From: Escherichia phage Greed
Length of the DNA: 60,042 nucleotides
Direction: 5' to 3' (one strand)
Sequence record: KX534337
Below, one piece after another: positions 146 to 17,703 of the stretch. A program made the position numbers and the translations under genes. Under the pieces are notes generated by a model. It was not told where the DNA came from. It was given only the letters and a program-made list of their open reading frames with translations, and did not search any database. Each line of letters opens with the position of its first letter. Within the stretch, counting starts at the first letter, position 1.

Positions 146-769
146 TCATTCATAATAATCATGTTGATGAGAACTGCCACGTATACCGCAACGTTCTAAA
201 AGTATTGCAGCTTTTTGAGCTTTCTCTTTCATACGGGTATTACGGCGTAAATGTCCGCTACCCTTTTTAGGTCTATTTTCCTTTTTCTTTGCTTCGGAAA
301 TAAGCTCTTTGCATTCCTGCAAACGGATCTTGCTTCTTTCCAATCGCATAGCAGAACGCGCACGTTCATCGCAAAATCTTTGGGCTTTACTACGCTGGTC
401 CTGATTAGCTGTATGACCTTTAACGTGGCGAAACTCAATAGTAAGATTATATTTACGAAGTTGATCGTTCAACCATTTGAAAGCTACACCTTCCTGTTCA
501 CTTTTCCAGCTTGCCTCTTTATACACTTTAATAGCGGTTGAACAATCTGTTTGCACAATTAAATGATCACCTGGATGGATTAATTTAGCCTTCATTCCCT
601 CCCAAATAACATTACAGATTGCCATTGTTTCAGCTGCATTATTATCAGGAGCTCCACGTAACGGTCCACCGTTAGCGTTATTTCCACGGTTGCACACTAC
701 CCAGCCCCCATATCCCGCGGCTTTTGTATTTGGACAAAAACTTGCATCAGATATAATTGTTACTCTCAT
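146..769 (-). CDS. rnhA: Ribonuclease H (RNase HI-like)
   Basis: 207 aa; RNase H catalytic pattern DASF...ETMAI...QTDC...KGH...CDERAR closely parallels E. coli RNase HI (TDGS, ELMA, STDS, KGH, CDELAR); basic C-terminal tail. Confidence 0.7.
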   Translation of the reverse strand: MRVTIISDASFCPNTKAAGYGGWVVCNRGNNANGGPLRGAPDNNAAETMAICNVIWEGMKAKLIHPGDHLIVQTDCSTAIKVYKEASWKSEQEGVAFKWLNDQLRKYNLTIEFRHVKGHTANQDQRSKAQRFCDERARSAMRLERSKIRLQECKELISEAKKKENRPKKGSGHLRRNTRMKEKAQKAAILLERCGIRGSSHQHDYYE

Positions 770-780
770 TGTTTATCCTT

Positions 781-806
781 AATAAAAAGGGGTCTGTTGA
801 CCCCTT
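781..806 (-). terminator. Putative rho-independent terminator (minus strand)
   Basis: 8-bp GC-rich stem AAGGGGTC/GACCCCTT with 4-nt loop, followed on the minus strand by TTTATT, directly after the stop of the 811..1041 gene. Confidence 0.4.
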
Positions 807-810
807 ATAG

Positions 811-1041
811 TTATGCAGGAATGGATTCTTCCGGTGCTTCCGGAATAACAATCTCGATTTCTTCCTCATTCTGGAAGGTTAGTCGAAACCCGTCTCCTGG
901 ACGCCCGAAAGCAAAGGTAAGGGCTATCGTATTATCCTGCTCGTAATGACAGATACTTTCTACTTTCATTTCGTTACCGTAAAAGTCACGGTAAATCATT
1001 CCAGGTAGCGCATCGGTCGCTTTGATCTTTCTTACAGCCAT
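811..1041 (-). CDS. Hypothetical protein (76 aa)
   Basis: ORF in the minus-strand gene array, compact spacing to neighbours; no recognisable motif. Confidence 0.4.
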   Translation of the reverse strand: MAVRKIKATDALPGMIYRDFYGNEMKVESICHYEQDNTIALTFAFGRPGDGFRLTFQNEEEIEIVIPEAPEESIPA

Positions 1042-1052
1042 TATTCCCCCGT

Positions 1053-1844
1053 TTACAGTTTGTCTTTGAACTCTTCGATATATTGCTCGATCGGATACTG
1101 CTTACGCTTGAAACGATCAAACAAGATTTTAGCAGATTCTACGTCTTCGTCGCTCTCTTTACTTGCGCCCGGTGCCATAAAATCACGCCATGTAAAACCG
1201 TTCAGATTATGCATCTTAGCGATGTGCTTGTTGTAACGGCTTTCCCAGTCCACACGCGGACCTTCCATCTTGCGTAAACCGCGCCCAAGCACCTGTACAT
1301 ACAAATCTTTCTGACGTTGTACAGCTTCACCATTATAAGGTCCGGTTTTAAACTCAACAACACTACCGTTAAGATCTGCACCATCCGCAAAGTTGTGTAG
1401 CATAGTTTCAATAACGTCATTCAATGTTGGAACCGTCACTTTGCCCTGGGCAATGCCTGCCAAATAACCGACGTTTTCTTCACCGTACAACTCGATCAGT
1501 TCTTTCTTGGTTGCTTCTGCTTCTTTGTTTGCGGACAAAGCCAACATCTGTTGTTCGAACATGTGTTCCTGTTCCAGGAAGTGAGCATAGCGCTCTTCGT
1601 CTACTTTGCACACAATCCATTTATATTCAACATCCTTGCTGAAGTCCGGATACTGATCTACTTCTACTACTTCCGTAGTAAAGAACTTGCCGTTATATTG
1701 AATAACAACTGTATCGCCCGGCTGCAATTCGTCACTTTCCAGAGCACGGTAGGTATAAAGACGACCACCCGCTTCAAACTTAACTTTGACAGTTACAACG
1801 CCTTTTAACAGAGCATGATAAGCTTTCTGAAATTCTTTACGCAT
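1053..1844 (-). CDS. Hypothetical protein (263 aa)
   Basis: Long ORF, GAGGA-type RBS upstream of ATG at 1844; no recognisable motif. Confidence 0.5.
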   Translation of the reverse strand: MRKEFQKAYHALLKGVVTVKVKFEAGGRLYTYRALESDELQPGDTVVIQYNGKFFTTEVVEVDQYPDFSKDVEYKWIVCKVDEERYAHFLEQEHMFEQQMLALSANKEAEATKKELIELYGEENVGYLAGIAQGKVTVPTLNDVIETMLHNFADGADLNGSVVEFKTGPYNGEAVQRQKDLYVQVLGRGLRKMEGPRVDWESRYNKHIAKMHNLNGFTWRDFMAPGASKESDEDVESAKILFDRFKRKQYPIEQYIEEFKDKL

Positions 1845-1885
1845 TTTAGTTTCCTCTTGGGCGGATTGACCGCCCGTTAATGTGG

Positions 1886-2296
1886 TTAGGCTTTATTCGG
1901 CACAATTTCCAGAGACGCGGAACCAACTTTCGATTCAACGCACTGGTTAAAGACTGCGGCTTGCTCCGCTGTAAGTTTACGCCAAGCCGCAACTTTCAAC
2001 ACAGGTTTATTTTCCACAAGCTGATCAACGTTAACACCAACTTTAATCAGATCGCCCAGGATTCCGTTAAGGCTTGGAAGATCAATCTTGCGATCAATCT
2101 TGTGTGTCATTTTCATAACCCCGCCAGTAATTTCAACTTTATTAGTCCCTTCTGATGGAGCAGGGAAATAGGACTTAATAATCTTTTCGCGTAGTGCTCG
2201 CTCGCGAGCTTGAAGCTTTTGTAATTCTGCTTTGGTTTTATACCACTCAATGACATCTGCTTCGGTTGCTTGTACTGCTTTATCTGCGTCGAACAT
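1886..2296 (-). CDS. Hypothetical protein (136 aa; track ORF extends to 2356)
   Basis: Internal ATG at 2296..2294 (MFDADKAV...) has a GAGGA RBS; the upstream extension has none. Confidence 0.45.
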   Translation of the reverse strand: MFDADKAVQATEADVIEWYKTKAELQKLQARERALREKIIKSYFPAPSEGTNKVEITGGVMKMTHKIDRKIDLPSLNGILGDLIKVGVNVDQLVENKPVLKVAAWRKLTAEQAAVFNQCVESKVGSASLEIVPNKA

Positions 2297-2328
2297 TTTT
2301 CTATCCTCTGTTGTGTTTCGATGTATGT

Positions 2329-2356
2329 ATAATAGCACATCCATGTGACAGGGCAA
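2329..2356 (-). promoter_or_regulatory. Putative sigma70-like promoter (minus strand)
   Basis: Minus-strand TTGCCC, 16-bp spacer, TATTAT located about 35 nt upstream of the 2296 start. Confidence 0.3.
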
Positions 2357-2537
2357 GACTCAATCTGTATCAATTAATCTTTTTAAACGGATTAGTAATC
2401 TAGCAACCTTCCTCCATTCAGCATCCTCCATTAATGGTGAAGGCTTATACGCTTCAGGTATCGGACAAGGTATATATGGCTCCATGTCAGATATTACTTG
2501 CTTTGATAACTTTTTCTTCCGTTTACCCATAAATGGC

Positions 2538-3125
2538 CTATTTCAAATAGCGGGAAGTCATAATTGGATGCAAAGACACTTCTTCCTCAGATGTAACCAC
2601 ATTTGCAGACGATCCAGTGGACCCGAAGCCGTTAGCACCGCGCTCAGTGGTCTTAAGCTCGTCCACTTCTACCAGTTGCACGCTGGGCAGCTTAATAAGC
2701 ATAGCTTGCGCAATGCGATCACCATGATTGACAGTAAAACTACCATCGTTATCAATAGTGATCTTAACCTTAAGTTCCCCAGTGTAGTCGCTATCAATGA
2801 CGCCCACGCAGTTTGCCAGACGCACGTTGTTTTTGAATCCGTGTCCGCTACGGGAATACACCATAAGCGCGTGACCTTCAGGAATATCAAACGCCAATCC
2901 TGTGTGGAATATGTGCTCGTAAGAGAAAATAATTTGCTCACATCCATCTTCACTCTTAAGATCCGCGTGCAGGTCAAAGCAAGCTGCCCCCGCACTGGCA
3001 AACGATGGAAGAATTGCGCTGTCTGTTAAGCGTTTCACCCCGAGAAGAGTTGGCGCAAAGGATGCAGCAGTTACGCTAGAATTAGTTATAGAAATAGTGT
3101 GCATATTATTTAATACGTCCGTCAT
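2538..3125 (-). CDS. dut: dUTP diphosphatase (trimeric dUTPase)
   Basis: All five dUTPase motifs present: AGAACFDL, YSRSGHG, GVIDSDYTGE, GDRIAQ, RGANGFGSTG. Confidence 0.85.
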   Translation of the reverse strand: MTDVLNNMHTISITNSSVTAASFAPTLLGVKRLTDSAILPSFASAGAACFDLHADLKSEDGCEQIIFSYEHIFHTGLAFDIPEGHALMVYSRSGHGFKNNVRLANCVGVIDSDYTGELKVKITIDNDGSFTVNHGDRIAQAMLIKLPSVQLVEVDELKTTERGANGFGSTGSSANVVTSEEEVSLHPIMTSRYLK

Positions 3126-3134
3126 AATTTCACC

Positions 3135-3602
3135 TTATTGGATTGAACCGCGATCAATTAACCATTGTTTCGCGTGCGCCTTAAAGATAATGCGGTAGTC
3201 ATCGAGACTAATTTCCGCGCGGATGGAATCTTTAACTTCATACCACTGCCATTCACCATTACTGAAGACAACCGGATTAAGCGGTAGAACGACCTTCCAT
3301 CCTTTACGTTCTATTTTATACATCAGAACTGGATATCTGCCAAGCTCTTTAGCAGATTGGACAGTCTGCTTCCACCATGTGTTTACTTGTGGCGTAGCAT
3401 GGTTTTTTACTTCAACCGCATGGTGGCATGTATTGCTGATATCACAACCACCGACAGCACTTTGATTCTGGTTTCGCTGAGCAATAGGTTTTTCCGGTAA
3501 CTGCATCCCCAGCTCTGCGTAGATTTCGGCATAAATTGCATTAAAGAAATCACATACTTCCCGCTCACCGCGTTGACCTTTAGCGCGAATATTTACTGCC
3601 AT
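3135..3602 (-). CDS. Putative PD-(D/E)xK nuclease (Holliday-junction-resolvase-like)
   Basis: 155 aa; KGQRGEREV...GGCDIS...VEVKN resembles the Hjc/PD-(D/E)xK core; assignment by motif only. Confidence 0.4.
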   Translation of the reverse strand: MAVNIRAKGQRGEREVCDFFNAIYAEIYAELGMQLPEKPIAQRNQNQSAVGGCDISNTCHHAVEVKNHATPQVNTWWKQTVQSAKELGRYPVLMYKIERKGWKVVLPLNPVVFSNGEWQWYEVKDSIRAEISLDDYRIIFKAHAKQWLIDRGSIQ

Positions 3603-3603
3603 T

Positions 3604-3906
3604 TCAAATCTCCTTCAAAGACTCACCAATAATCCGTTTAATTTTACACAGTCTGCGAACTTGAGTAAAGAACGCTCCGTTTTTCCAAGGTACGCCAAAA
3701 TCTCCGGTTGTGATTGGTTGCATAAAACCGGGAAGAACAATGCTAGCGCTGGCTGTAACTCCATCCGGTTTATCGTTAATAGTGATAATATAGTCTTCGT
3801 CCATTTTACTCATGATGCAACCAGACTCGACATCCGTCCCCATATAACGCACTTGCACAGACCATCCTGATTGTGACAGGTGCTGTTTAAACTCTTCATA
3901 TGTCAT
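3604..3906 (-). CDS. Hypothetical protein (100 aa)
   Basis: ORF tightly packed after 3135..3602; no motif recognised. Confidence 0.45.
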   Translation of the reverse strand: MTYEEFKQHLSQSGWSVQVRYMGTDVESGCIMSKMDEDYIITINDKPDGVTASASIVLPGFMQPITTGDFGVPWKNGAFFTQVRRLCKIKRIIGESLKEI

Positions 3907-3976
3907 ATAATCTCCAAAAGTTGAATATAAAACACTTCATAAAGAATTTTATATTGAAGTTCTGTTGATCTCAAGG

Positions 3977-4008
3977 AACAAAAAAGCCCAGGCATAAGGA
4001 TTCCTGGG
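3977..4008 (-). terminator. Rho-independent terminator (minus strand)
   Basis: Stem GCCCAGG/CCTGGGC with AATCCTTATG loop, followed on the minus strand by a T6 run; sits downstream of 4323..4640. Confidence 0.5.
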
Positions 4009-4015
4009 CTCTCTT

Positions 4016-4322
4016 GATTGTCGGATAGCTTACTTTGACTGCCGTCTTCGTCTATCCTGGCCTACTTGTACAGCCTCGCCAAAGGCCGGTGACGGTTTGG
4101 TACATCTGGCGCCGTCGCGTTAAACATCGTTCACATCGTTCAGTAAGTTGCGGGTTTATCCTGTCCGCTCCAGGAAGCCCAGCGAAAGTAGTTGCTGTAA
4201 GGAGGTACAGCTACCGCTTTCAAGGTCTTGAGTTAAGCATCGTTCACTAAGTTAATGTTGTTAAATTGTTAAACCTCGTTAACTGTGGTTATCTTAAAGG
4301 ATGCAGTCTTGAATGGCAAGCT
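4016..4322. promoter_or_regulatory. Non-coding regulatory island with CATCGTTCAC repeats
   Basis: About 300 bp without a credible ORF; CATCGTTCAC at 4126 and 4248, ATCGTTCAG at 4136, CCTCGTTAAC nearby. Confidence 0.35.
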
Positions 4323-4640
4323 TCAATTTTGCGCGGTTCCCTTTGCCGCTTTTGGTGCTAAAGTACCATCATTTAACATCAACTCAAAACCTGTTACTTG
4401 ATCGGTTGGAACAATAGGGTAATTCATAATAGCCATGTGGATACGATGCCCTCCGTCACATTCATCGATGTATTCATTACCCCAATAGTATAAATGCCCA
4501 TCTCTTCGAATATCCATTGGTGTTGGGAAATCTACAAGTATCCTTTTAATTTCTTTCCGTCCTTCTTTATGCAGATTAGTTTCAATACGGATAAGCTCCG
4601 CATAAATTGCTTCACAGATAGTGTTTACAATTCCCATCAT
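4323..4640 (-). CDS. Hypothetical protein (105 aa)
   Basis: ORF with start overlapping the upstream stop (ATGA coupling). Confidence 0.5.
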   Translation of the reverse strand: MMGIVNTICEAIYAELIRIETNLHKEGRKEIKRILVDFPTPMDIRRDGHLYYWGNEYIDECDGGHRIHMAIMNYPIVPTDQVTGFELMLNDGTLAPKAAKGTAQN

Positions 4641-4846
4641 TTACCCCTTAAGTTTTGAATCATTCTATCGCAGGCAGCTTTTACAGAAGAGTTCTGCCAG
4701 TCTTCTTCAATTTGTGAAGGTTCTTCAGGCGAATAAGCAGCACTAATTAAACACTGATTATAACCTTCAATATAAGCCTGTTTTGCGGTATCTACTATTG
4801 CTTGTAAAGCAATATTGAATAATTGTTCAGACATTTTACACCTCAT
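4637..4846 (-). CDS. Hypothetical protein (69 aa)
   Basis: Small ORF translationally coupled to 4323..4640. Confidence 0.45.
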   Translation of the reverse strand: MRCKMSEQLFNIALQAIVDTAKQAYIEGYNQCLISAAYSPEEPSQIEEDWQNSSVKAACDRMIQNLRGK

Positions 4847-5061
4847 AACAGAATTGTATATACATTTTGAAGATACCCGTAACTATATGTCGAGCGAACG
4901 CGCTTTACTTTAACAATACCGCGGCTTTCCAAAATACGGATACGATTACTCACATAACCTTTACTGCGTTTAATCTTTTTAGCCATATCTTTAATACTGT
5001 AACGGTTGGAGCGTAAAAGGTCTAACAAGTAAGGACCATGATAGGAACCAATAAAGACCAT
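4843..5061 (-). CDS. Small DNA-binding protein (winged-helix/HTH-like), 72 aa
   Basis: ATG at 5061..5059 with GAGG RBS; SIKDMAKKIKRSKGYVSNRIRILESRGIV resembles an HTH; the track ORF start at 5235 lacks an RBS. Confidence 0.4.
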   Translation of the reverse strand: MVFIGSYHGPYLLDLLRSNRYSIKDMAKKIKRSKGYVSNRIRILESRGIVKVKRVRSTYSYGYLQNVYTILL

Positions 5062-5069
5062 TTTATACC

Positions 5070-5144
5070 TCACAGAATGTACATAAACCAGAAATAACCA
5101 GCTACAAAAATAGCACCCGCAAATAATTTTAAAAGCTCGAACAT
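5070..5144 (-). CDS. Possible 24-aa hydrophobic micro-protein
   Basis: ATG at 5144..5142 preceded by GGAGGG; encodes MFELLKLFAGAIFVAGYFWFMYIL, a single predicted transmembrane helix; stop lies 6 nt before the next start. Confidence 0.25.
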   Translation of the reverse strand: MFELLKLFAGAIFVAGYFWFMYIL

Positions 5145-5243
5145 TGTTCCCTCCGTTAACTTTATGCTGTAAGTATAGCAGGACTTGAGATGTATGCAAC
5201 AACTTTAGACTTGAAATGCATCTATAAAATAGCACGATTTGCC

Positions 5244-5272
5244 TTTACATCTGATCAGTCTAACTGTACTAT
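5244..5272 (+). promoter_or_regulatory. Putative promoter (TTTACA, 17 bp, TACTAT) with GATC in spacer
   Basis: -35 TTTACA, 17-bp spacer containing GATCAGTCT, -10 TACTAT, about 30 nt upstream of the 5303 start. Confidence 0.35.
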
Positions 5273-5302
5273 TAACTCATAAGCAAAACGGAGGATTACA
5301 AA

Positions 5303-5527
5303 ATGGTCATGCTGAATAAAGTATATAGCACAATGGGCGCGGATTATAAAGTTGTACGTCACCCGCGTACTGGCAAATTTGAAGCATATATCCGTCCAAT
5401 GGGTGAAGGTTGGATGTATTACGGTACTTATGACGACGCTGAGCAAGCTTATGAAGAAGCGGAAAGTGCAGCGGAAGCATCCGAAATTATGGCAAGGTAC
5501 GACGTCGATGATTACTATCTCAACTAA
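5303..5527 (+). CDS. Hypothetical acidic protein (74 aa), lone plus-strand gene in the minus-strand arm
   Basis: GGAGG RBS 8 nt upstream; acidic C-terminal half (14 Asp/Glu); own promoter-like element. Confidence 0.4.
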   Translation: MVMLNKVYSTMGADYKVVRHPRTGKFEAYIRPMGEGWMYYGTYDDAEQAYEEAESAAEASEIMARYDVDDYYLN

Positions 5528-5553
5528 CAATAAAGAGCCTTTCGGCCCTTTAT

Positions 5554-7890
5554 TTATTTGCTTAAGTCTTTGAAAACACTCTCAATTGACTCGTCTATAT
5601 ACCATCCCAACCCCCTGAAATTACGCTTCAATGCATCCTCACGCGTAACCGGAACAAGCGCGCCCATGTCTACAAGTTGTTTGATAGTGAGGTCTGTTGC
5701 CGTACCTGCTCCCATCCTGTGATTCTTGAATGCTGCTAACCCGTAGGTTCTGCGTGTGATAGTTGCCTTCGGAATAATACCGTCAACTCGCAGCTCCTTA
5801 CGGTCACATGCAATTTTACCGCCAAGATAGTCTTTGCAAACCTGACAGATAGCCTTCACACGCGTTTCATCATCACCACCGATAGTACCTTTTTCCCATG
5901 CGTTGATCATAATGTCCTGTCCATGCGTGACAAAATCTACCGCCCATTGCATGTGATTGGGTTGAACGACAGGATTGATCCAGTTTTCCCCCACTGCTAA
6001 CAGGGATGCAAGACGCAGAGCTTTAAGGTGGGCACGGTTCCACGGCTGACGGATAGCTTCGTCTTTAGTTGCGTTAATGTGTTCATCACATAACAAGTTA
6101 AACTCCCGTTCAATCCTTTCCGCTTCAGGGCTTAACTGGACGGTAACGGTCTGGAACTTCGCCATTGTCACTAACGTGTGGTTAACGAGATGGCACACCA
6201 TGTCCTTTAATTGCTGAGGCATTGTGATTTCAGGATTCTCGTTTGCAGGAACTCGATCCCCTTCATATTGCACAATGTGGAAACGGGACAAGAAACCGTC
6301 TTCCATCATTTCACGTGTTAACGCTTCAAAGAATGTGTCCGGTGTTGTTTCGCCCAAAACGCTGAACGCCACCCCTTCCATTGTCTTGGTATTATTAGCC
6401 TTATCAGAATATCCAATACCGCCAACAACATCCATCGCACCAGATTTTTGATACACATCTGTAATAGTTTGCTTCAAGGTGTAGTTCGCAGTGCCTGGCT
6501 GAGCTGTCGCCATACCTTTAATGGTTTTACCAAACTCACCGTTAATATTCACAAACGAAGTATGATCCGCAAAACTTTTACGCAAGGCAGGACCGGAAGC
6601 ATAGTTAGTCATGTCTACAAATTCATGCACTTGCGGTAATTGCTCGCCTACTTGCTTACAGATATAACTGGGCCCAGCGTGAAGCATTTCTTTACCCACA
6701 CCTGATCGGGCAATAAGGACAAAGTAACCGTTCAGCCCTGTGTTGGTGATAGTATTCCACACCTTGCCACATACGCCGGATAAGAATGCTAAAGATGCAG
6801 TGATTGCAATTTCTTTCACCGGACGCTGCGATGCTTTGTAGATATACTTCGCAAGCTCACCAGCAAGTCCCGGCGGCCATTCAATAGCTGTTGCATCAAT
6901 GGACGTGCTTTCTGCAACTACTATTTCACCGGAAGGGCTGACTGTGGTTACAGGCATTTCCGTTACCTGCTGCATTGCACTGTGTGCGGCTTGCATACGG
7001 GCAGCGTAATCCCGCGCCAGCGCCGCTACGTTTTCCTGGGCAATACGCTCACGCTCCATGCGACCGCGACACATACGCAAACAACGGTCAATATGAACAT
7101 TGTTCTTATTAGCCTTTTCACGTTTGCCCAGTGCACTATAACGGAACAGACGACGACATTGCTCATTACTTTCTGTGTAAAATGCATACATGGAAATAAG
7201 GGCAAGGTCTGCTTCAGACTGGGAAGGGAATCCCATTTCAACCCATTCACCATTGAAGAGGCGTGCATACTTATCGCCGTTGTCCGCTTCAAGTGCACGC
7301 TGGTGAATAGTTGCATCGTCTTCTACCGGATCTTTTTCTACCAGTTCGATCTCATATGTCTTGCGCTGAAGATCAATTTCATTCACAAGCATAGTAAGAT
7401 AATGATCACGTTCTGCAACTGGTTTGTTATAGACAGGATTACCCGTGCAGATAATAAAACGCTCCTGACTATAAACCTCGACACCATCACGTCGGCGACC
7501 TTTACCGATGTTCCCTCTTAACCACAGGTGGACGCCCAAGCCTGAGCGACTTACTTCGGTGTAAGTATCGAACGCGGTCATGATCTGTTCAAAGCGGCGC
7601 AACTGTTCCGGCGTCGTGTGCTTCTTGGGATCAGGTTCATTGGTTGCGTTCTTCACATCCAGGTCGATGCAGGTGAACGGGTCTTGCGCAGTAAGCACGA
7701 AGCCAATATAAGGTTTGTTGAAATGAGCGGCGCAACCTTTAGCAGATTCAAACGTCATAAGCATATCCGGATCGGTAACGTCCGCCGCCATCAAACGCCC
7801 GATATCGTTGTCCCATACAAGAGGCTTTTTATCCGCATCGGCGACCGCCCATTGTGGGAAACCTTTAATTTCAGCGGGAAACAGTTCCAT
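5554..7890 (-). CDS. DNA primase-polymerase/helicase (prim-pol N-terminus, D5/P4-like NTPase C-terminus)
   Basis: 778 aa; N-terminal archaeo-eukaryotic-primase-like motif GLGVHLWLRG; central P-loop-like ARSGVGKE; large size and position typical of phage primase-helicases. Confidence 0.65.
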   Translation of the reverse strand: MELFPAEIKGFPQWAVADADKKPLVWDNDIGRLMAADVTDPDMLMTFESAKGCAAHFNKPYIGFVLTAQDPFTCIDLDVKNATNEPDPKKHTTPEQLRRFEQIMTAFDTYTEVSRSGLGVHLWLRGNIGKGRRRDGVEVYSQERFIICTGNPVYNKPVAERDHYLTMLVNEIDLQRKTYEIELVEKDPVEDDATIHQRALEADNGDKYARLFNGEWVEMGFPSQSEADLALISMYAFYTESNEQCRRLFRYSALGKREKANKNNVHIDRCLRMCRGRMERERIAQENVAALARDYAARMQAAHSAMQQVTEMPVTTVSPSGEIVVAESTSIDATAIEWPPGLAGELAKYIYKASQRPVKEIAITASLAFLSGVCGKVWNTITNTGLNGYFVLIARSGVGKEMLHAGPSYICKQVGEQLPQVHEFVDMTNYASGPALRKSFADHTSFVNINGEFGKTIKGMATAQPGTANYTLKQTITDVYQKSGAMDVVGGIGYSDKANNTKTMEGVAFSVLGETTPDTFFEALTREMMEDGFLSRFHIVQYEGDRVPANENPEITMPQQLKDMVCHLVNHTLVTMAKFQTVTVQLSPEAERIEREFNLLCDEHINATKDEAIRQPWNRAHLKALRLASLLAVGENWINPVVQPNHMQWAVDFVTHGQDIMINAWEKGTIGGDDETRVKAICQVCKDYLGGKIACDRKELRVDGIIPKATITRRTYGLAAFKNHRMGAGTATDLTIKQLVDMGALVPVTREDALKRNFRGLGWYIDESIESVFKDLSK

Positions 7891-7896
7891 ATTTAA

Positions 7897-8100
7897 TTAA
7901 GACCTCCGACGCTTATCGCCTTGCATCTTTTCCAGGACGGGTTCTGCTAATGAACGTTTATAGATGTACACGCTACCGATTTTAATAGCGCCGGGAATGC
8001 ATTCGCGCATTCTGGAGAGCTTAAATTTTGAAATACCGAACTGGTTTTCAATTTCGGTAGTTGTTATATAGTTGTGATTAAATTCTTCGACGTGGGTCAT
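7897..8100 (-). CDS. Small HTH DNA-binding protein (AlpA/excisionase-like)
   Basis: 67 aa; ITTTEIENQFGISKFKLSRM resembles a helix-turn-helix; basic C-terminus. Confidence 0.4.
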   Translation of the reverse strand: MTHVEEFNHNYITTTEIENQFGISKFKLSRMRECIPGAIKIGSVYIYKRSLAEPVLEKMQGDKRRRS

Positions 8101-8161
8101 AGCTCCTCCTTTGTCCGCACACTATACACAGATAAGAGGAGCCATTGCAATGCGTTTTGCG

Positions 8162-8908
8162 TTACAGGATATGGGGGCAATAATATTTATCCTTAACAAA
8201 CTGAAAAACTTCTTCAGGTGTGCGGTCATTACGAAGTTCAATCATATGATTGTCCAGCCATGCTAAACTCTCCTCAGCCTTATCTCTATTATTAAAGTGC
8301 AATAGCTTTGAAGGTGTATCGCCAGGAAGGGTAACTTCAATACAAAATGAACCTGTTTCTAAATGCGTTATGTTGCAAGTCGGCCAAACGCCGCGGTTTT
8401 CCCATACAGAAGGCGCATCCTCAAATCTACATGAGCTATACCATTTATTGCGAAGAGATGTGATCTCCTTACTTGTTAACGGGGCGCCCTTAACCCTTTC
8501 ATGCTCCTCCAGCCAGGCTTTAAATTTTGGGTTAGGTTTGCGCCCCGGCTTCCCTCCTTTCGCCTTTGCGCTTTCTTTAAACGCTTGCTCGTATGGGTCT
8601 GATCCCTTGCCCATGTGGTAATTGAATTTGCCCGTATAGCTGCGAAGCTCTTTGGCGTCCAGTTCATGTCCCAGCTTATCGCTCACCCATGCAAGGAAAG
8701 CTTCCCGCTCTGCATCCAGCTTTCCCGCTTTCGGTCTTACAGATTTTTTAACTGGCTGCTCCACATCCTCGTTGAAGTAATCTTCCACCATAGCAAGCGC
8801 CTGTGATTTGGTTGGTGCACCACGCAACCGTGAGCACGCTTGCACAACCCAAGCCGCGAAGCACATATCCTTAACCACAGTCTTTGAGGTAATAATTTCT
8901 TCACTCAT
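8162..8908 (-). CDS. Hypothetical protein (248 aa)
   Basis: Long ORF with no recognised motif. Confidence 0.5.
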   Translation of the reverse strand: MSEEIITSKTVVKDMCFAAWVVQACSRLRGAPTKSQALAMVEDYFNEDVEQPVKKSVRPKAGKLDAEREAFLAWVSDKLGHELDAKELRSYTGKFNYHMGKGSDPYEQAFKESAKAKGGKPGRKPNPKFKAWLEEHERVKGAPLTSKEITSLRNKWYSSCRFEDAPSVWENRGVWPTCNITHLETGSFCIEVTLPGDTPSKLLHFNNRDKAEESLAWLDNHMIELRNDRTPEEVFQFVKDKYYCPHIL

Positions 8909-8989
8909 AATCCACCTATACGCGTAGAAAGAAAGTTAATCATATAACAAAGTTTTTGTAATCGCAAAACCTTCGCAAAACTTTGTCTT

Positions 8990-9260
8990 TCCTGCATTAT
9001 ATTAAACGATAGTGCTAGTGGCCAGCATAGTGGCATCACCGCTTATAGTGCGCCGTTACTGGCTTTGCTATAGTGAGCCACTATACGCTCACTATACACT
9101 AATAACTAATTTTATTTTATTTAGTGGTAATAAAGTTTTGGGGTTTTGGGGGAGACCCCTATATATCCCGGAAAAAACAAAGAAATAGTAGTAGTAGTGA
9201 AAAACATAGTGAAATGCCACTATCTCACTATCACTACTAATTTAGTGTAAATCATGGGGG
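8990..9260. repeat. Iteron-like cluster of ATAGTG/CACTAT repeats
   Basis: At least 12 copies of (C/T)ATAGTG or its complement CACTAT within about 270 bp of non-coding DNA. Confidence 0.55.
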
Positions 9261-9299
9261 TGTCTATGTACCAAAAACCTAAAACTTTCAGTCAACAGA

Positions 9300-9420
9300 C
9301 TAAAAACGGATAGAAACTAAAAGTTAATAAGTAATACCATAAATATATATAAAATAAGGATTTATTAATAATGTATATAGTACCTATTGGTATTATTTGA
9401 ATGTTTTTGGGTCTGCAACA
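9300..9420. promoter_or_regulatory. AT-rich tract adjacent to the iterons (possible DNA unwinding element)
   Basis: About 120 bp of high A+T content (for example AAATATATATAAAATAAGGATTTATTAATAATGTATATAG) with no ORF. Confidence 0.35.
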
Positions 9421-9612
9421 AAAAGTCGCAAAACTCACAAAACCTGAACGGATGCAGATCAAAAACGAGAAGTCAAGTGCTTTTGAGGGAAATTTATTGA
9501 ACTATTGTGATCGGAAGGTATATCAAGCTATAATGCGCTTAATCGCGGGATATTGGAGGAGGACTTTATTGCGCGGTTGACCGGACCAGTAGGAGGGCTG
9601 GCCCGGAGTAGT

Positions 9613-9945
9613 TTAGAGCTGTACAGGTATGAAGTGGGCTAATGTGTCGTCGGACATGATACCCGACAATTTTTCGCTTACCCATTCGGACCAAATGCTA
9701 TCCGGTTCCTGGCGGTGCACAAACCAGATTTCGGATGTGCCTTCTTTGCGCATCGGCTGCACTTCTACAAGGAACTTGTCCTGCATAAGGCGGGTGAAGC
9801 ATACGCTAGTCATTGGAACTGGCTTTTCGTGTTTATTGTAATAAGGAGTCAGTAATTTATTTCCGAAGTTGGCAACTTCATAAACTGTTCCTTTGCGAAG
9901 ACCTCTGATGTCCGTGTAAGAGCGGATAAATGTTTTCATGTTCAC
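9613..9945 (-). CDS. Hypothetical protein (110 aa)
   Basis: ORF with RBS-like GGAG upstream; no motif. Confidence 0.45.
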   Translation of the reverse strand: MNMKTFIRSYTDIRGLRKGTVYEVANFGNKLLTPYYNKHEKPVPMTSVCFTRLMQDKFLVEVQPMRKEGTSEIWFVHRQEPDSIWSEWVSEKLSGIMSDDTLAHFIPVQL

Positions 9946-9988
9946 TCCTAGGCTCCCGCAGAAGCCCGTTGGTTGATGTGGTTATAGA

Positions 9989-10648
9989 TTATGCGTCCAG
10001 TCCGTTGTATTTGCGCCAAGCGTAGAACTGAATGGCGACCGTTGTCCCGTTGTAAGAAGGCATTGCAGCTTTCATTTCTTTCAGCTCCGGCGTGCGGCCA
10101 AGTTCAGCTAAAAGTTTGTCGCCCATTGCCCACACTTCGGCGGTTTTTCCTTTCAGAGGCTTGCGAGCGCCATTTTTGAAATCACAGCGAGCAGCTTTTG
10201 CATCCTGTTTTGGCGCGGCAGCTTTTGGCTCTTCAATTTTGATTTCAGAAACCTGCGTGGCAGCTTTTGCATGTTTCATATCTTTCTCTTCCTCCTGCTC
10301 CAGAGCTTCGAGGCAGCTTTTGACAATTTCCGGATTTACCATCGGGCGCAGTACCGAGACGCTGGCAGCTGGCGCGGCGGTCGGTGCCGGTACTTTCTGC
10401 TCCGGCTGCTGCGCTTTTTTATGGTCGCGCAGCACCTGAAGCACTTCCTTCTCGACGATGTAAAAACCGATCTCGTCCTGATGGATTAACTGTTCGTGTG
10501 CGTCGCGTGCAACCTGGCCCCAGCGAGTTTTGAGGGCGCGGCGTGCATTGGTCTTCATGGTGTAACGCATTTTGTCCTGTTCGCGGTGAGTTACTTTAGA
10601 CATGGTATAGCTCCTTTCGTTAATATTAGTTTGCTTATTACTGCCCAC
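9989..10648 (-). CDS. Ala/Lys/Glu-rich protein with conserved C-terminal domain (paralog of 53058..53885)
   Basis: 219 aa (alternative start at 10603); central KAAAP-rich low-complexity region; C-terminus VWAMGDKLLAELG...YAWRKYNGL aligns with AWALMDQISATLG...YARWKKFNGV of 53058..53885. Confidence 0.5.
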   Translation of the reverse strand: MGSNKQTNINERSYTMSKVTHREQDKMRYTMKTNARRALKTRWGQVARDAHEQLIHQDEIGFYIVEKEVLQVLRDHKKAQQPEQKVPAPTAAPAASVSVLRPMVNPEIVKSCLEALEQEEEKDMKHAKAATQVSEIKIEEPKAAAPKQDAKAARCDFKNGARKPLKGKTAEVWAMGDKLLAELGRTPELKEMKAAMPSYNGTTVAIQFYAWRKYNGLDA

Positions 10649-11493: not shown

Positions 11494-11522
11494 TAGACAC
11501 ATGATCGGTCTAGCACTACTAT
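11494..11522 (+). promoter_or_regulatory. Putative rightward promoter (TAGACA, 17 bp, TACTAT)
   Basis: -35 TAGACA, spacer containing CATGATCGGTCT, -10 TACTAT; a near-identical element recurs at 12337..12365. Confidence 0.4.
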
Positions 11523-11905: not shown

Positions 11906-12190
11906 ATGTCCATCGTCACTATGTCGTTCTTCGACCATTGCAATAACGAAAAACAAATTATCGTGAACCTGCAAAAAGGATCTGTTGTCGCACGCAATGC
12001 TAACCGCCAATGCATCGCGCTAACCGATTTTGCTTTCCGCCTTAACGTGGACAACACCACCGCCAAAAATATCGTTCACGATACAGCGTTGGAAGCTGCT
12101 CACGCTGCGAAGGATAAAGGTATCCGCGACGCACGCAAAATCATGCACAAGGCGCTCGGCATCACGTTCTTCGTTGGGATTAAGGGGTAA
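11906..12190 (+). CDS. Hypothetical protein (94 aa)
   Basis: GAGGT RBS 8 nt upstream of ATG. Confidence 0.5.
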   Translation: MSIVTMSFFDHCNNEKQIIVNLQKGSVVARNANRQCIALTDFAFRLNVDNTTAKNIVHDTALEAAHAAKDKGIRDARKIMHKALGITFFVGIKG

Positions 12191-12195
12191 CTACT

Positions 12196-12339
12196 ATGTC
12201 ACGCAAATACACGCTTACACGCGCACAGCACGCGTTATTATTGCAGGTTATGCGCATGGAGTACGAAGAGACTACATGGGCGCAGGCTATGCAGACAGGG
12301 CGCGAGTTCTACGCGCAACTAATAGCACAAAATGCCTAG
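12196..12339 (+). CDS. Possible small protein (47 aa)
   Basis: ATG 5 nt after the upstream stop with AAGGGG RBS; open to TAG at 12337; below the ORF-track length cutoff. Confidence 0.3.
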   Translation: MSRKYTLTRAQHALLLQVMRMEYEETTWAQAMQTGREFYAQLIAQNA

Positions 12340-12365
12340 ACAACATGATCGGTCTGGTGGATACT
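12337..12365 (+). promoter_or_regulatory. Second copy of the TAGACA/CATGATCGGTCT promoter-like element
   Basis: TAGACA, 17-bp spacer with CATGATCGGTCT, GATACT; followed by the conserved ACGGGGGTAAACAAA leader before the 12399 start. Confidence 0.4.
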
Positions 12366-12398
12366 ACACACATCAACCAAACAACGGGGGTAAACAAA

Positions 12399-12626
12399 AT
12401 GCGTAGTTTCAAATGTGTAAGCGTAAATGCTACTGGTAACGGTCTGTTCACGGCAGGTAATGTATATGACTTCAACATGGAAAGTTATAAAGACACAACG
12501 CTTACAGGTGTAATGTTCGGTGGCGCTCGTGTCGTTCGCTGCCATTTAAACAAGAACACGGAAAATAAATATACCCTTATCAGTCGCTACACGGGCGAGC
12601 CGTTAGCTGTGTTCCATGCAGCTTAA
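12399..12626 (+). CDS. Hypothetical protein (75 aa; track ORF starts at 12030)
   Basis: ATG at 12399 has the conserved leader/RBS shared with 11574; the longer upstream extension overlaps other genes and lacks an RBS. Confidence 0.45.
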   Translation: MRSFKCVSVNATGNGLFTAGNVYDFNMESYKDTTLTGVMFGGARVVRCHLNKNTENKYTLISRYTGEPLAVFHAA

Positions 12627-12702
12627 GCTATAACGCACACAGCGCCGCGCTAGTGAGCTAATGTACATAGGTAATGGTAATGCATTAGCTCGGGCGAAAC
12701 AG

Positions 12703-12750
12703 GCGCACAGCGTCGCGCACAGCTCGCACAGCGCACACAGACCCACGCAG
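12703..12750. repeat. Tandem GCGCACAGC-like repeats in a 430-bp non-coding region
   Basis: GCGCACAGC, GCGCACAGC, GCACAGC, GCACACAG in tandem; strongly C+A-rich on the plus strand. Confidence 0.45.
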
Positions 12751-13060
12751 GCCCAGCCGCGCAACCCGACCCATCCTTTTCCAGGTACTTGGATCGCTGG
12801 GGCGTGCCCTGTCTATCCTGATAGTAAGTCCTTGCCTAAATCTCACCTGTCACATCCCTATCCACCTACATCCATGACCCCACCTACCTTCTTTTTGAAT
12901 ATATTGCGCTCATCCTTTCTAAATATATGGATTTTGGTAGTAAATTCTGAGTCGTCAACGTATAATTCGTCTTGTAGCTGCTCCATAGCTACCATCTTTA
13001 AGCGGATGCAACCAATTTCTATCAATTCACACCTGTTTTTAGAGCATCAAGGAGGTATTT

Positions 13061-13312
13061 ATGTGCGACACCAGTGCAAGCGCTACACCCAGCACCTCCA
13101 GCAATGTGGTTACAGAGGTAAATGCAATGCGATTAGGTCCATATCGCGGCTATTATGGTCGTGCTGCATGGAATGACGCTACTCAACGTTTTGAAGGCTG
13201 GATTATCTGCCCGGAACGTGTTAAATTTCACTCCGTAAAAGAGAAAAATATCGTTCTTAATTTTCAAAAATGTGTGACTAAATATGTAGAGGAGCAAGAA
13301 GAATGCGTGTAG
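13061..13312 (+). CDS. Hypothetical protein (83 aa)
   Basis: Strong RBS AAGGAGG 7 nt upstream of ATG. Confidence 0.5.
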   Translation: MCDTSASATPSTSSNVVTEVNAMRLGPYRGYYGRAAWNDATQRFEGWIICPERVKFHSVKEKNIVLNFQKCVTKYVEEQEECV

Positions 13313-13581
13313 AAGAGATTGTTGAAGGTAAAGAGTATCGTTTACTGACCGATATTGGTGGTGTTGGATATACTCCGGGCGATGGTACGGAGTTCCGGGA
13401 ACTGAAAGCTGGTTCTATTGTCACTGTTAATAAGGTGGTGTTTGATTTGCATAGCCTTTTCGGGCAGTGGAACCATACTGTAATTGTTAGCCAGGGTAGC
13501 GATGAATACGATGAAGAAGAGGATGCTTACGAAATCAGTTATACTGGTCTTGTAGGCGCCAATTTCCTGGAGGAAGTGTAA
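13303..13581 (+). CDS. Hypothetical protein (92 aa)
   Basis: Start overlaps the upstream gene; acidic C-terminus. Confidence 0.45.
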   Translation: MRVEEIVEGKEYRLLTDIGGVGYTPGDGTEFRELKAGSIVTVNKVVFDLHSLFGQWNHTVIVSQGSDEYDEEEDAYEISYTGLVGANFLEEV

Positions 13582-13632
13582 TTATCAATCTATAATGGGC
13601 TCTACGGAGCCCTTAATTATCTGGAGGTTGTT

Positions 13633-13935
13633 GTGCTGTATTTAGGAATGGACGAAACTGGACACGCGATTCCTTCTGTTAACAAGGAGACGCAAGTATT
13701 TACCGACTATTACGGGTCTGCTATCCCTGTAGAGCCCTGGGCTAACTTTATCGCTGTAGATGCAGATGGTAAAGTTCATTGTTATGACACCAAACCTTCT
13801 TGCTATGAATCTGGTAAGCAATGGATGCTTGGCGTATACGGATTACATGTCCGCTACTGCGGTGAAGTTGACCTTGAAGGTATGGACTGGCGCGATACGC
13901 TAAGGGAAATCAAAGAATATAGGCTTAACCCATGA
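13633..13935 (+). CDS. Hypothetical protein (100 aa), paralog of 51982..52281
   Basis: GTG start with GGAGG RBS; shares PEW...DxDG...EVDLEGMD...TL motif string with the protein at 51982..52281. Confidence 0.45.
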   Translation: MLYLGMDETGHAIPSVNKETQVFTDYYGSAIPVEPWANFIAVDADGKVHCYDTKPSCYESGKQWMLGVYGLHVRYCGEVDLEGMDWRDTLREIKEYRLNP

Positions 13936-14156
13936 AAATATTCATGATACTAGGCGTTATACTTGCCGCTTTTGTTGTATTTGCAATTGTAGATTCTAAA
14001 GAAATGGAGCGGCAAAACTGCCAACGTACTGGTAACAGCCGGGATGATATCATTTGGCAATATATTTACGATGCAAAAGGTAATGTTATGTCAATGTATC
14101 CTCAGGTTATTACTGAGTATGAATATAAATGTAATGACCGTAACAGGTGGAGATAA
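13932..14156 (+). CDS. Small membrane protein (74 aa)
   Basis: N-terminal hydrophobic helix MKIFMILGVILAAFVVFAIV; start overlaps upstream stop. Confidence 0.45.
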   Translation: MKIFMILGVILAAFVVFAIVDSKEMERQNCQRTGNSRDDIIWQYIYDAKGNVMSMYPQVITEYEYKCNDRNRWR

Positions 14157-14350
14157 TAATGGATAGACTATCCGATGAGCGCGTTGCTAAGCTTGCAGAA
14201 TATGACTGTGCAAGCAATGAGGAGGTTATGTCTTTAGCACAAGAGGTGAAGGAACTTCGAGCTGTAGCAAAGGACTTCCTGCGTCGTAATAAATATGGTC
14301 CTTTGTTCTATCGTGATTTGTATAACCGTTTTAAGGAGATTGTGAAATGA
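14147..14350 (+). CDS. Hypothetical protein (67 aa)
   Basis: Translationally coupled small ORF. Confidence 0.4.
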   Translation: MEIIMDRLSDERVAKLAEYDCASNEEVMSLAQEVKELRAVAKDFLRRNKYGPLFYRDLYNRFKEIVK

Positions 14351-14616
14351 TTACCGCTCAAGAAGCTCGTGAATTAAGCGATAAGCTGGATATTAGCGAA
14401 GATATTGAATTTATCAGTAACAGCATTCGCGTAGCTGCTACAAAGGGATACAATAAAGTATCACTGGTAACAAAATACGGATCTGTTGGCAATCCCGACA
14501 CTCAAGACCCAACCACTATGAAGATTGCTAAATGGTTAGCTGATTCTGGTTTTAAGGTGTTATATTATCCTTCAATGGACCAACGTGATAACGAGCGTAC
14601 TGAGGTAGCATGGTGA
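14347..14616 (+). CDS. Hypothetical protein (89 aa)
   Basis: ATGA overlap with the upstream gene. Confidence 0.45.
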   Translation: MITAQEARELSDKLDISEDIEFISNSIRVAATKGYNKVSLVTKYGSVGNPDTQDPTTMKIAKWLADSGFKVLYYPSMDQRDNERTEVAW

Positions 14617-14683
14617 TTGAAGAAAATATCAAATATTGGAAAGGCTTTATTGACGAAATGTTGAAACCATTGGAGAAGAAATA

Positions 14684-15076
14684 ATGCTATTAGTCGTCAC
14701 CGGAGGTCGAGATTTTAAGCATGTGGAGTATATTTATGCTCAATTGGATAAGCTGCATATGCAAAGAAGGATAACCACACTACGCCACGGTGACGCTGAC
14801 GGTGTTGACCGCATTTGCGCACAGTGGGCAGAGCGCAACGGTATTAAGACAGAAGCGTTCCCTGCCCCGTGGGACAATCTTTCCTTACCAAATACCAAGA
14901 TACGGTATAATGCCAAAGGTGCTTATAATGCACAAGCAGGCGCTTACCGCAATCAATTAATGCTGGATACCGATCCTAAACCGGATCACGCTATTGTGTT
15001 TCCTGGCGGAGCTGGTACTATGGATATGTACAGACGGATTAAAGCATCCGGTATTCCTTACACTTTAGCGGAGTAA
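14684..15076 (+). CDS. SLOG/DprA-like Rossmann-fold protein (DUF2493-like)
   Basis: 130 aa; VVTGGRDF...HGDADGVDRICAQWA...FPGGAGTMD matches the glycine-rich nucleotide-binding pattern of SLOG-type proteins; motif-level call only. Confidence 0.4.
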   Translation: MLLVVTGGRDFKHVEYIYAQLDKLHMQRRITTLRHGDADGVDRICAQWAERNGIKTEAFPAPWDNLSLPNTKIRYNAKGAYNAQAGAYRNQLMLDTDPKPDHAIVFPGGAGTMDMYRRIKASGIPYTLAE

Positions 15077-15079
15077 ATA

Positions 15080-15550
15080 ATGGCTGACGTTAAAACTATT
15101 GTTGATGCAATGGACGAGTCCAAAGACTGCCAACTGAAGAAGTCGTTTGAAGTAAAACAGGTTACAGAGACTCAGTTGGTCTGTAATTTTGCGCGTTATT
15201 GTGGACTGGGGCGCGGGAAAGACTGGAACGGGCTTATTGTTATGCCCACATCGCAGATTCTCGTTTACGTCCGCAATATTGTAGAAGATCTTTTGCGTCT
15301 TCAAATAGATATTGGTGACGTAGAAATCAACATGACCGCGAGCTCTACCATTGTGGTTAAATGGCAGTCGGGCGAGACACTGCGTTTGGAAGCGTGTTAT
15401 TGTGCTAAGAGCTTGCACCACCTGCGCGGCTGTCATTACCAGTTCGTTGGGTTTGTACATCCGCAAGGGTTAAGCGAGCGTACGGCGCTTGTAGCTCGTT
15501 TGCTGCTGCGTCCTTATAATAACGAGCCGGAAGTCATATACGAGGCATAA
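15080..15550 (+). CDS. Hypothetical protein (156 aa)
   Basis: ORF 4 nt after the upstream stop; no motif. Confidence 0.45.
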   Translation: MADVKTIVDAMDESKDCQLKKSFEVKQVTETQLVCNFARYCGLGRGKDWNGLIVMPTSQILVYVRNIVEDLLRLQIDIGDVEINMTASSTIVVKWQSGETLRLEACYCAKSLHHLRGCHYQFVGFVHPQGLSERTALVARLLLRPYNNEPEVIYEA

Positions 15551-15551
15551 G

Positions 15552-15758
15552 ATGGAAACTCCATTAGCTAAACAAATGATAGAGCGTGCGGATCGGGACG
15601 GTTTACCGGAAGACCATGCTATGCGTCGAACTGCCCAAGTATTTGACGAAATTAGCGTTAAATATGCGATGGGTAAGAGCACGCCTAAAGGTTTATTGGG
15701 CGCCTGGGCTCGCGCTTGGCGCTGCTGGTGCAACTACACCGGAGAACCACTTGTATGA
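15552..15758 (+). CDS. Hypothetical protein (68 aa)
   Basis: Small ORF, coupled to neighbours. Confidence 0.4.
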   Translation: METPLAKQMIERADRDGLPEDHAMRRTAQVFDEISVKYAMGKSTPKGLLGAWARAWRCWCNYTGEPLV

Positions 15759-16177
15759 TTAAACACGTTAAACAGCCAACGTTGAATACATGCGTTTCTG
15801 CGTGTTTGGCAATGATCCTTAATAAACCTGTCGAAAAGGTCATTAAGGAATTTCACAGTCGTTATTATAACAACTGGGAAATCACTATCAGCGAATATTT
15901 GACTAAAAACGGCGTCCCGCATCATTGTTCAGAAGGTGGTGGGCGTGAAACTTTGCATATGGGAGGTTTGTTCCTATGCACGGTGCCAAGTCTTAATATT
16001 CCTGGCGCATTGCACCAGATTGTGATTGATATGACGGATCACAAGTTTATTGTGCATGATCCAATTAAAGGATGGGAAGGTAAAAAGTTCTATGTTGGTC
16101 CGGATCAAGATCCTGAAGAGCCTGGAGCTTTTATCATTCATACTTGGGTCAAAGACGTTGAAATCCTGCCTTATTAA
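15755..16177 (+). CDS. Putative C39-like (papain-fold) cysteine peptidase
   Basis: ATG at 15755 overlapping the upstream stop; QPTLNTCVSACLAMIL resembles the C39 catalytic-Cys region and HKFIVHDP a candidate catalytic His; motif-level only. Confidence 0.4.
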   Translation: MIKHVKQPTLNTCVSACLAMILNKPVEKVIKEFHSRYYNNWEITISEYLTKNGVPHHCSEGGGRETLHMGGLFLCTVPSLNIPGALHQIVIDMTDHKFIVHDPIKGWEGKKFYVGPDQDPEEPGAFIIHTWVKDVEILPY

Positions 16178-16239
16178 TTTTCTTGCTATCACATAACCCT
16201 TCATTGTATTGTGTACCCATCGAATAAGAGGGGTACACA

Positions 16240-17667: not shown

Positions 17668-17672
17668 CTGAC

Positions 17673-17693: not shown

Positions 17694-17703
17694 TGGAGGG
17701 AAC

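Follow-up and report, generated by a model that had tools for sequence, protein, structure and literature searches.

What does a short plus-strand gene do inside an arm of a phage genome that is otherwise read in the opposite direction? The genome record of Escherichia phage Greed (KX534337; the window, that is, the whole stretch of 60,042 nucleotides (nt) that was analysed) contains an open reading frame (ORF) of this kind, encoding an acidic protein of 74 amino acids (aa), next to a primase/helicase gene. An earlier note, made from the sequence alone, had proposed it as a candidate DNA mimic or anti-defence factor with independent expression. Here, we compare the locus with related phages and with a published knock-out screen. 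The ORF is a real protein-coding gene under purifying selection, with a fixed position beside the primase gene, and, by analogy with a near-identical ortholog, it would neutralise the Hhe helicase/Vsr-nuclease defence, with a lesser effect on Druantia type I. The anti-Hhe role has already been published, as a preprint, for this 97%-identical ortholog and is not a discovery of the present work.

The ortholog is ORF65 of phage PhiDruSM1, which is identical to the window gene at 72 of 74 residues and 218 of 225 nt and is labelled "ORF65 (PH_ORF70)" in GenBank PP596835 (46513..46737; Escherichia phage Dru_SM1). A knock-out library of PhiDruSM1 was plated on E. coli bearing a plasmid library of defence systems, and the deletion of ORF65 brought plating efficiency down by 10^-3 with small plaques on hhe cells, together with a weaker plating loss on Druantia type I; the gene was dispensable without a defence system, its loss mattering for two of the tested systems (Ojima et al., bioRxiv 10.1101/2024.04.14.589459). 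The coding sequence (CDS) of ORF65 cloned behind a vector ribosome-binding site (RBS) is entered in the supplementary table of the same preprint as "Anti-defense insert: Yes, Anti-hhe". According to the primer table, the reading frame is preserved in the deletion, which spares Met-Val, the last six codons, the promoter, the RBS and the terminator. Polar effects are therefore unlikely, since the deletion is clean and the unit is convergent with its sole downstream neighbour. Thus, the roughly 1000-fold plating loss and the scored activity of the cloned ORF bear out the proposal of an anti-defence factor, and criteria that relied on sequence only had led to a genuine anti-defence gene. Hhe combines helicase and Vsr-endonuclease domains in one large polypeptide; no description of its trigger or mode of action was found in the literature searched.

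Another important question is whether the gene is expressed independently, from a promoter of its own, as had been claimed. In the same screen, a second deletion of 66 bp, named PH_ORF69, produced the same two phenotypes as the loss of ORF65 (bioRxiv 10.1101/2024.04.14.589459). This deletion maps to 5193..5258 of the window and removes the -35 hexamer, the GATC of the promoter spacer and a conserved block upstream of the promoter, while the -10 hexamer is kept. The 30-aa PH_ORF69 (5190..5282) was considered as a coding gene and rejected, as stop codons interrupt it in four divergent relatives (L004, L012, L014 and L015); because this ORF is not conserved, the simplest reading of the deletion phenotype is an inactivated ORF65 promoter. 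The claim of independent expression is in line with this result. The deletion also removes the candidate -35 hexamer of a leftward promoter, and a leftward gene may thus contribute to the phenotype.

Is the protein itself the active product of the locus? A search with tblastn detected the gene in 34 phage records, in all of which the ATG-initiated ORF is present and intact at the same position. In 33 of these records it is full-length with 96-100% aa identity, a level that holds even with the surrounding DNA at just ~88% identity, and Salmonella phage STP-SP5 has a divergent 65-aa version (40% identity) at the same position. The orthologs include PhiDruSM1 ORF65, CPT_Seurat59 and bas23_0068 and belong to PHROGs family phrog_22269 (E 5e-54, spanning residues 1-74 of 74), the function of which is unassigned there. 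Three more short members (P0005, P0007 and P0017; 66-74 aa, 41-56% identical) came to light in an exhaustive HMMER scan of 1.84 billion representatives; the contigs that carry them, 41-61 kb in size, are whole or partial phage genomes, and in each the gene is opposite in strand to its neighbours, convergent with a primase gene and ~230-240 bp from the first leftward gene. Only four family members were recovered in a word-indexed search of 5.8 billion proteins, and three loci in a scan of IMG/VR. Between the window and the relative L011, dS is 0.68 and dN is 0.10 (dN/dS 0.15); more distant pairs are synonymously saturated, yet the protein is kept. It is this dN/dS ratio, together with an ORF that stays intact and syntenic down to 40% identity, that identifies a real gene. 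One metagenomic protein of 45 aa, P0004 (1.2-kb contig), has an N-terminus like that of the neighbouring 69-aa gene (MDQQLFNIA..LQAIVDTAKQAY) and a C-terminus equal to the last 30 residues of the 74-aa protein; it is probably an assembly or recombination chimera.

It could be argued that the protein is irrelevant and that the RNA or DNA of the locus acts, that the ORF is the remnant of a homing endonuclease of the HNH-AP2 type, or that an antisense 91-aa ORF (5255..5530) is the real gene. HNH homing endonucleases are the usual context of AP2 domains in phages, PHROGs returned a weak match to the AP2-bearing part of HNH endonuclease family phrog_99 (E 0.0027), and Seuratvirus genomes carry HNH_3 endonucleases, one of them with a weak AP2 tail; non-coding RNA is raised as a general caveat by Ojima et al. 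(bioRxiv 10.1101/2024.04.14.589459). Only close relatives keep the antisense ORF open, at 93-97 codons, and as a real gene it was rejected: in the same four divergent relatives its frame is cut to 18-51 codons, while the plus-strand ORF is intact in all, so that the alternative which the earlier note had named as refuting its proposal fails. Further points against these explanations are the constraint acting on the plus frame, the lack of any HNH match in Pfam, an hhalign probability of 0.1% against the HNH endonuclease of DruSM1, a position that is fixed in all relatives rather than mobile, and the anti-hhe score of the CDS alone behind a vector RBS. We consider it highly improbable that the protein is irrelevant, and the remnant-endonuclease, RNA-only and antisense-gene readings are effectively excluded.

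The protein has an isoelectric point (pI) of 4.42 and a net charge of -7, with 14 Asp and Glu against seven Lys and Arg. The charge is unevenly distributed: residues 1-34 carry a net +4 and residues 35-74 a net -11 along with seven of the ten tyrosines, in agreement with the acidic, Tyr-rich C-terminal half noted previously. Acidity is family-wide, with pI values of 4.05-5.05 and net charges between -2 and -12; in the two most divergent members, at net -10 to -12, only 3-4 residues are basic and the N-terminal half is net 0. The invariant residues of the family are M1, M3, L4, N5, Y8, S9, D14, R31, W37, A49 and E61; V2, K6, V7, Y15, Y29, T42, D44 and E54 are nearly invariant.

These properties raise the question of which fold the protein adopts. 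The Pfam AP2 profile (PF00847) matches the protein below threshold (E 0.006, 17.3 bits against a gathering score of 33.3 bits), and an AP2 match of any kind was found by HMMER in four of ten family members, the best at E 0.0018. Searches with the family as a profile were more sensitive. Against all PDB sequences, hmmsearch retrieved the AP2 domains of WRI1 (E 4e-6), ERF096 and AtERF1; all non-family matches checked from the 1.84-billion-protein scan bear 2-8 Pfam AP2 domains; and hhalign aligned the family with a small AP2 profile over 40 columns with a probability of 96.4% (E 1.3e-9). AlphaFold2 predicted strands at residues 13-19, 26-32 and 38-43, a helix over 46-66 and, at 66-74, an acidic/aromatic tail that is disordered, with a mean confidence (pLDDT) of 78 and 82.5 in two models, residues 1-60 lying at 85-95 in the latter. 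The predicted arrangement is that of an AP2 domain, a three-stranded antiparallel sheet packed on a C-terminal helix. As judged from profile matches and models, the protein is thus a divergent, acidic AP2-like domain, and its acidic Tyr-rich C-terminal half is, in the models, the AP2 helix, lengthened and acidified, plus the tail.

The DNA-contacting features of AP2 domains are represented only in part. The base contacts of AtERF1 in the published structure, R150, R152, W154, E160, R162, R170 and W172, correspond to R19, P21, T23, Y29, R31, W37 and Y39 in the HMMER and hhalign registers. Two of the seven (R19 and R31) are identical, and R19 is replaced by Leu in three family members; with this count and with the pI and net charge given above, the base-contacting Arg/Trp set and basic surface of AP2 domains are not found. 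By alignment register, the side of the sheet that would face DNA (Y29, R31 and W37) includes conserved residues, and conserved residues are also located in the extra N-terminal segment and at two helix glutamates. The helix displays an acidic stripe at i, i+3/i+4 spacing (E47, E51, E54, E58 and E61), in which E51 and E58 vary within the family.

Other searches did not extend these assignments. Foldseek gave no match at E <= 0.001 against the PDB, the best ones being unrelated, and against BFVD it gave the protein itself followed by many small uncharacterised phage beta3-alpha proteins (E 0.01-0.2). PADLOC had no match for the protein, NCBIfam had only sub-threshold AcrIIA4 and L18Ae matches, and Rfam (gathering thresholds) and ARAGORN found nothing in the whole window. 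Ojima et al. report an HHpred call of ORF65 as a transcriptional regulator, SplA (bioRxiv 10.1101/2024.04.14.589459); with HMMER, none of the ten family members matched SplA, even at E up to 10. Structure prediction, which had been suggested as a check, supported an AP2-like fold but not a likeness to a known DNA mimic.

How, then, could such a protein counteract Hhe? We favour direct inhibition by the protein itself, with about an even chance, over DNA binding or a regulatory role. Host RNA polymerase would probably start at the promoter of the locus (TTTACA, a spacer with TGATCAGTCT, TACTAT), and the ~275-nt mRNA would end at a bidirectional terminator shared with the primase gene. The product would form a three-stranded sheet on a long helix followed by a disordered tail and, acidic unlike DNA-binding AP2 domains, would bind Hhe directly; the sheet face with Arg31, Trp37 and Tyr29 and the acidic helix stripe would occupy the nucleic-acid-binding site of Hhe. 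It would not be a sequence-specific transcription factor. This preference has three grounds: the protein is too acidic and has too few AP2 base-contact residues for ordinary DNA binding, the gene is dispensable without defence and its loss is confined in effect to two helicase-containing systems, and no operator-like motif recurs in the genome. The more specific proposal, in which an AP2 fold was turned into an acidic decoy for the nucleic-acid-binding site of Hhe with a weaker effect on Druantia I, is more tentative, at somewhat less than even chances; the partial effect on Druantia I, which also contains a helicase, would fit a decoy that competes for DNA-binding sites.

Several points weigh against this interpretation. 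The predicted binding of the protein to Hhe is a proposal. The complementation of ORF65 was carried out with the deletion phage present and is absent from the main text, being scored only in a supplementary table, and the source is a preprint (bioRxiv 10.1101/2024.04.14.589459); with the phage present, a direct inhibitor is not separated from a factor acting on phage DNA or gene expression. The invariant R31 and W37 and the near-invariant Y29 on the DNA-contacting face of the AP2 fold fit nucleic-acid binding equally well, and library and HMMER searches gave no significant similarity to known DNA mimics.

The same residues lead to the main competing explanation, namely, that the protein is a functional AP2 domain that binds phage DNA (a structure, an end or a 7-deazaguanine-modified site) or its own promoter and protects indirectly, either by hiding what the Hhe and Druantia systems sense or cut or through activation of another phage gene that encodes the true inhibitor. 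The significant AP2 homology with conserved residues on the DNA-contacting face, the net +4 of the N-terminal half, a conserved non-coding block directly upstream of the promoter that could be an autoregulatory operator, and the SplA call of the preprint are all consistent with it, and complementation in the presence of phage fits it as well. However, the net charge is -7, and the divergent members reach -10 to -12 with N-terminal halves of net 0; five of the seven AtERF1 base-contact positions are not identical; the candidate operator is single-copy in the genome; the gene is dispensable without a defence system; and HMMER failed to recover SplA in the family. On balance, we consider this explanation rather unlikely, albeit the strongest competitor. 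Clearly less probable is DNA mimicry of the classical kind known from Ocr, ArdA and AcrIIA4, in which rigidly arranged carboxylates would imitate the backbone of DNA and sequester several DNA-binding defence proteins; this would be a sharper form of the direct inhibitor, with the AP2 likeness as no more than a remnant of the fold. The acidic helix stripe and tail, seen in both sequence and models, the family-wide acidity, the effect on two different helicase-containing systems and weak matches to the AcrIIA4 family in two libraries (E 0.077 and 0.055) point in this direction; the AcrIIA4 matches are, however, below threshold and limited to one of ten family members, and no significant likeness to a known mimic was found.

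The promoter, terminator and other features of the locus are presented in Table 1. A transcription start near 5279 is predicted from the position of the promoter, and the locus looks like a monocistronic unit. An alignment of seven phages (-260 to +40) with saturation at synonymous sites revealed that the -10 hexamer TACTAT and the sequence CGGAGG are invariant, while the -35 hexamer is variable (TTTACA or TTTACC in close relatives; TAGACA, TAGTAC or TAGAGC in distant ones). The upstream block, TTTAGAC(T/G/A)TGAAA..CATCTA ... ATAGCACGATTTGCC, is largely conserved in the same alignment and may be an UP element or an operator. A search for further copies of it, as a regulon or operator test, found none elsewhere in the window; its element ATAGCAC.A..TGCC recurs at 12322, upstream of the promoter at 12337. 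To the left of the block lies an invariant TTAACTTTATGCTGTAAGTATAGCA, whose minus strand reads TGcTATACT, an extended -10, in all seven phages. The leftward candidate promoter was missed by the consensus scan, since its -35 hexamer matches at three of six positions only.

Table 1 Features of the locus and related promoters (positions in the window)
Feature	Position	Strand	Characteristics
Candidate leftward promoter, back-to-back with the rightward one	5172..5199	-	TTGCAT (5199..5194), 16-nt spacer, TGcTATACT (5180..5172)
Conserved block	5204..5243	+	TTTAGACTTGAAATGCATCTA ... ATAGCACGATTTGCC; upstream of the -35 hexamer, between the two back-to-back promoters
Sigma-70-type promoter	5244..5272	+	-35 TTTACA (5244..5249), 17-nt spacer, -10 TACTAT (5267..5272); 9 of 12 matches in scan
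Ribosome-binding site	5290..5294	+	GGAGG, 8 nt 5' of the ATG; annotated as RBS in Seurat
CDS of the 74-aa acidic AP2-like protein	5303..5527	+	ATG ORF; predicted product MVMLNKVYSTMGADYKVVRHPRTGKFEAYIRPMGEGWMYYGTYDDAEQAYEEAESAAEASEIMARYDVDDYYLN
Hairpin	5529..5554		AAUAAAGAGCC-UUUC-GGCCCUUUAUU; A-tract before, T-tract after; predicted bidirectional intrinsic terminator shared with the primase gene
Two more promoters of the same class	11494..11522, 12337..12366	+	TAGACA, CA or ACA, TGATCGGTCT, 5-6 nt, TACTAT or TACTAC

The hairpin fills the 26-nt gap before the stop codon of the convergent primase/helicase gene (5554..7890, minus strand, 778 aa). Its fold is weak on its own (-9.5 kcal/mol, z = -1.6), and a strict terminator scan did not detect it; the annotations of phages Seurat and SA80RD place a terminator on both strands at the equivalent position.

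The spacer of the rightward promoter carries its motif at 5252..5261, with GATC at 5253..5256, and the earlier note had assigned it to a GATC-spacer class. Such a class was indeed recovered: the decamer TGATC(A/G)GTCT occurs exactly three times in the window, always on the plus strand and each time between a -35-like T(T/A)(T/G)ACA and a -10-like TACTA(T/C), with the -35 hexamers starting at 5244, 11494 and 12337. At 11494, an inverted repeat, TAGAC-N9-GTCTA, is made up of the -35 hexamer and spacer and points to an operator that overlaps this promoter. The promoters at 11494 and 12337 head a plus-strand cluster of small genes (11.5-15 kb). Since this cluster holds an ortholog of DruSM1 ORF83, the motif TGATCRGTCT may mark early or counter-defence genes of the phage. 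The ORF83 (anti-AVAST III) ortholog is located at 14684..15076 (plus strand) and begins with MLLVVTGGRDFKH. An ortholog of a further counter-defence gene, DruSM1 ORF72 (anti-BREX I), is located at 9989..10648 (minus strand) and contains MSKVTHREQDKMRYTM, with an ATG downstream of the listed GTG start. Both orthologs were recognised from sequences in the supplementary table of the preprint (bioRxiv 10.1101/2024.04.14.589459).

The position of the gene relative to its neighbours can be described more precisely from the genome setting. Region 4000..8000 of the window matches 37 phage records; the top matches, 95-97% identical, include Aeromonas phage SD04 and Escherichia phages WildeMaa, GottfriedDienst, CSP1/CSP1C, Seurat and CAjan. 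Every record inspected belongs to Seuratvirus (Queuovirinae), with genomes of 55-63 kb, and the window is essentially the whole, circularly permuted genome of a Seuratvirus coliphage. ORFs of at least 100 aa occupy two minus-strand blocks, 146..10648 and 43857..59872, and a plus-strand block extends over 12030..42101. As circular permutation of a ~60-kb genome joins the two minus-strand blocks, the leftward arm amounts to ~27 kb rather than the roughly 40 kb stated in the earlier note. The description of the gene as a lone plus-strand gene holds with respect to the direction of the arm but is too strict otherwise, as some records annotate two other small plus-strand ORFs nearby, bas23_0064 and the 30-aa PH_ORF69.

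The leftward side of the intergenic region has its own structure. The first gene of the leftward operon is a hydrophobic micro-ORF of 24 aa, MFELLKLFAGAIFVAGYFWFMYIL (5144..5070, minus strand), with a GGAGGG RBS of its own; it is shared by 12 of 13 examined relatives (STP-SP5, for instance, has MFEFVKIFASVIFIALYFWLMYWV), no ATG-initiated version having been found in L014, and it is missing from all annotated feature tables inspected. The next gene, whose RBS overlaps the stop codon of the micro-ORF (TGAGGTGTAAAATG), varies between phages. In the window, this place is occupied by a 72-aa MarR-like winged-helix protein (5061..4843, minus strand; Pfam MarR E 9e-6, above the gathering score), while most relatives carry unrelated small genes (Seurat58-like of 65 aa, or of 85, 123 or 135 aa). 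The place downstream of the 24-aa ORF looks like a slot for swappable cassettes. Further to the left, a stretch of 416 nt (3907..4322) is without a conserved gene and has a repeated CATCGTTCA(C/G/T) at 4124..4150 and 4238..4250, and part of it is GC-rich; in several relatives, an HNH endonuclease is inserted nearby, and Rfam found nothing in the stretch. It could be an origin/iteron region or a non-coding RNA.

Apart from the published phenotype, the present analysis adds the AP2 assignment, the limits of the family (Seuratvirus and a handful of relatives), the set of residues conserved in it and a connection of the promoter class with the plus-strand small-gene cluster. AP2 ancestry comes with a short list of residues for mutation: R31, W37, Y8, D14, E61 and the near-invariant E54. 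If true, an acidic AP2 decoy would give a handle on what Hhe recognises and would be, to our knowledge, the first anti-defence protein with an AP2 fold.

Among known systems, PhiDruSM1 ORF65 is the closest. It comes from the same phage genus and shares with the window gene the promoter region, the upstream 240 bp and the convergent downstream primase gene, and its protein differs by two substitutions, E51K and N74S. The left neighbour is different: the MarR-like gene of the window is lacking in DruSM1 and most relatives. The preprint calls ORF65 SplA-like and gives no mechanism, whereas the AP2 assignment is made here. In comparison with AP2/ERF domains (PF00847; AtERF1, 1GCC/2GCC; WRI1, 7WQ5; TEM1, 7ET4), the protein is acidic rather than basic, has an extra conserved N-terminal segment, MVMLNKVYS, and has a helix of ~21-27 residues followed by the acidic/aromatic tail; in contrast to the AP2 domains of phage and bacterial HNH homing endonucleases, it is free-standing, without HNH or any other domain. 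The DNA mimics T7 Ocr, ArdA, AcrIIA4 and AcrIF2 are likewise small, strongly acidic and dispensable without a defence system, and the gene would resemble them in its expression from an own, possibly early, promoter; it has no significant sequence or fold similarity to them, and the target of its ortholog is the helicase/Vsr-nuclease Hhe, not restriction-modification, BREX or CRISPR. Finally, loss of the NAD+ synthesis genes g79/g80 of Bas63 also lowers phage fitness on hhe cells (PhageMaP preprint 10.1101/2024.10.10.617714), but these encode metabolic enzymes with mild plaque-size effects, whereas ORF65 is a non-enzymatic protein of 74 aa with a 10^-3 effect on plating.

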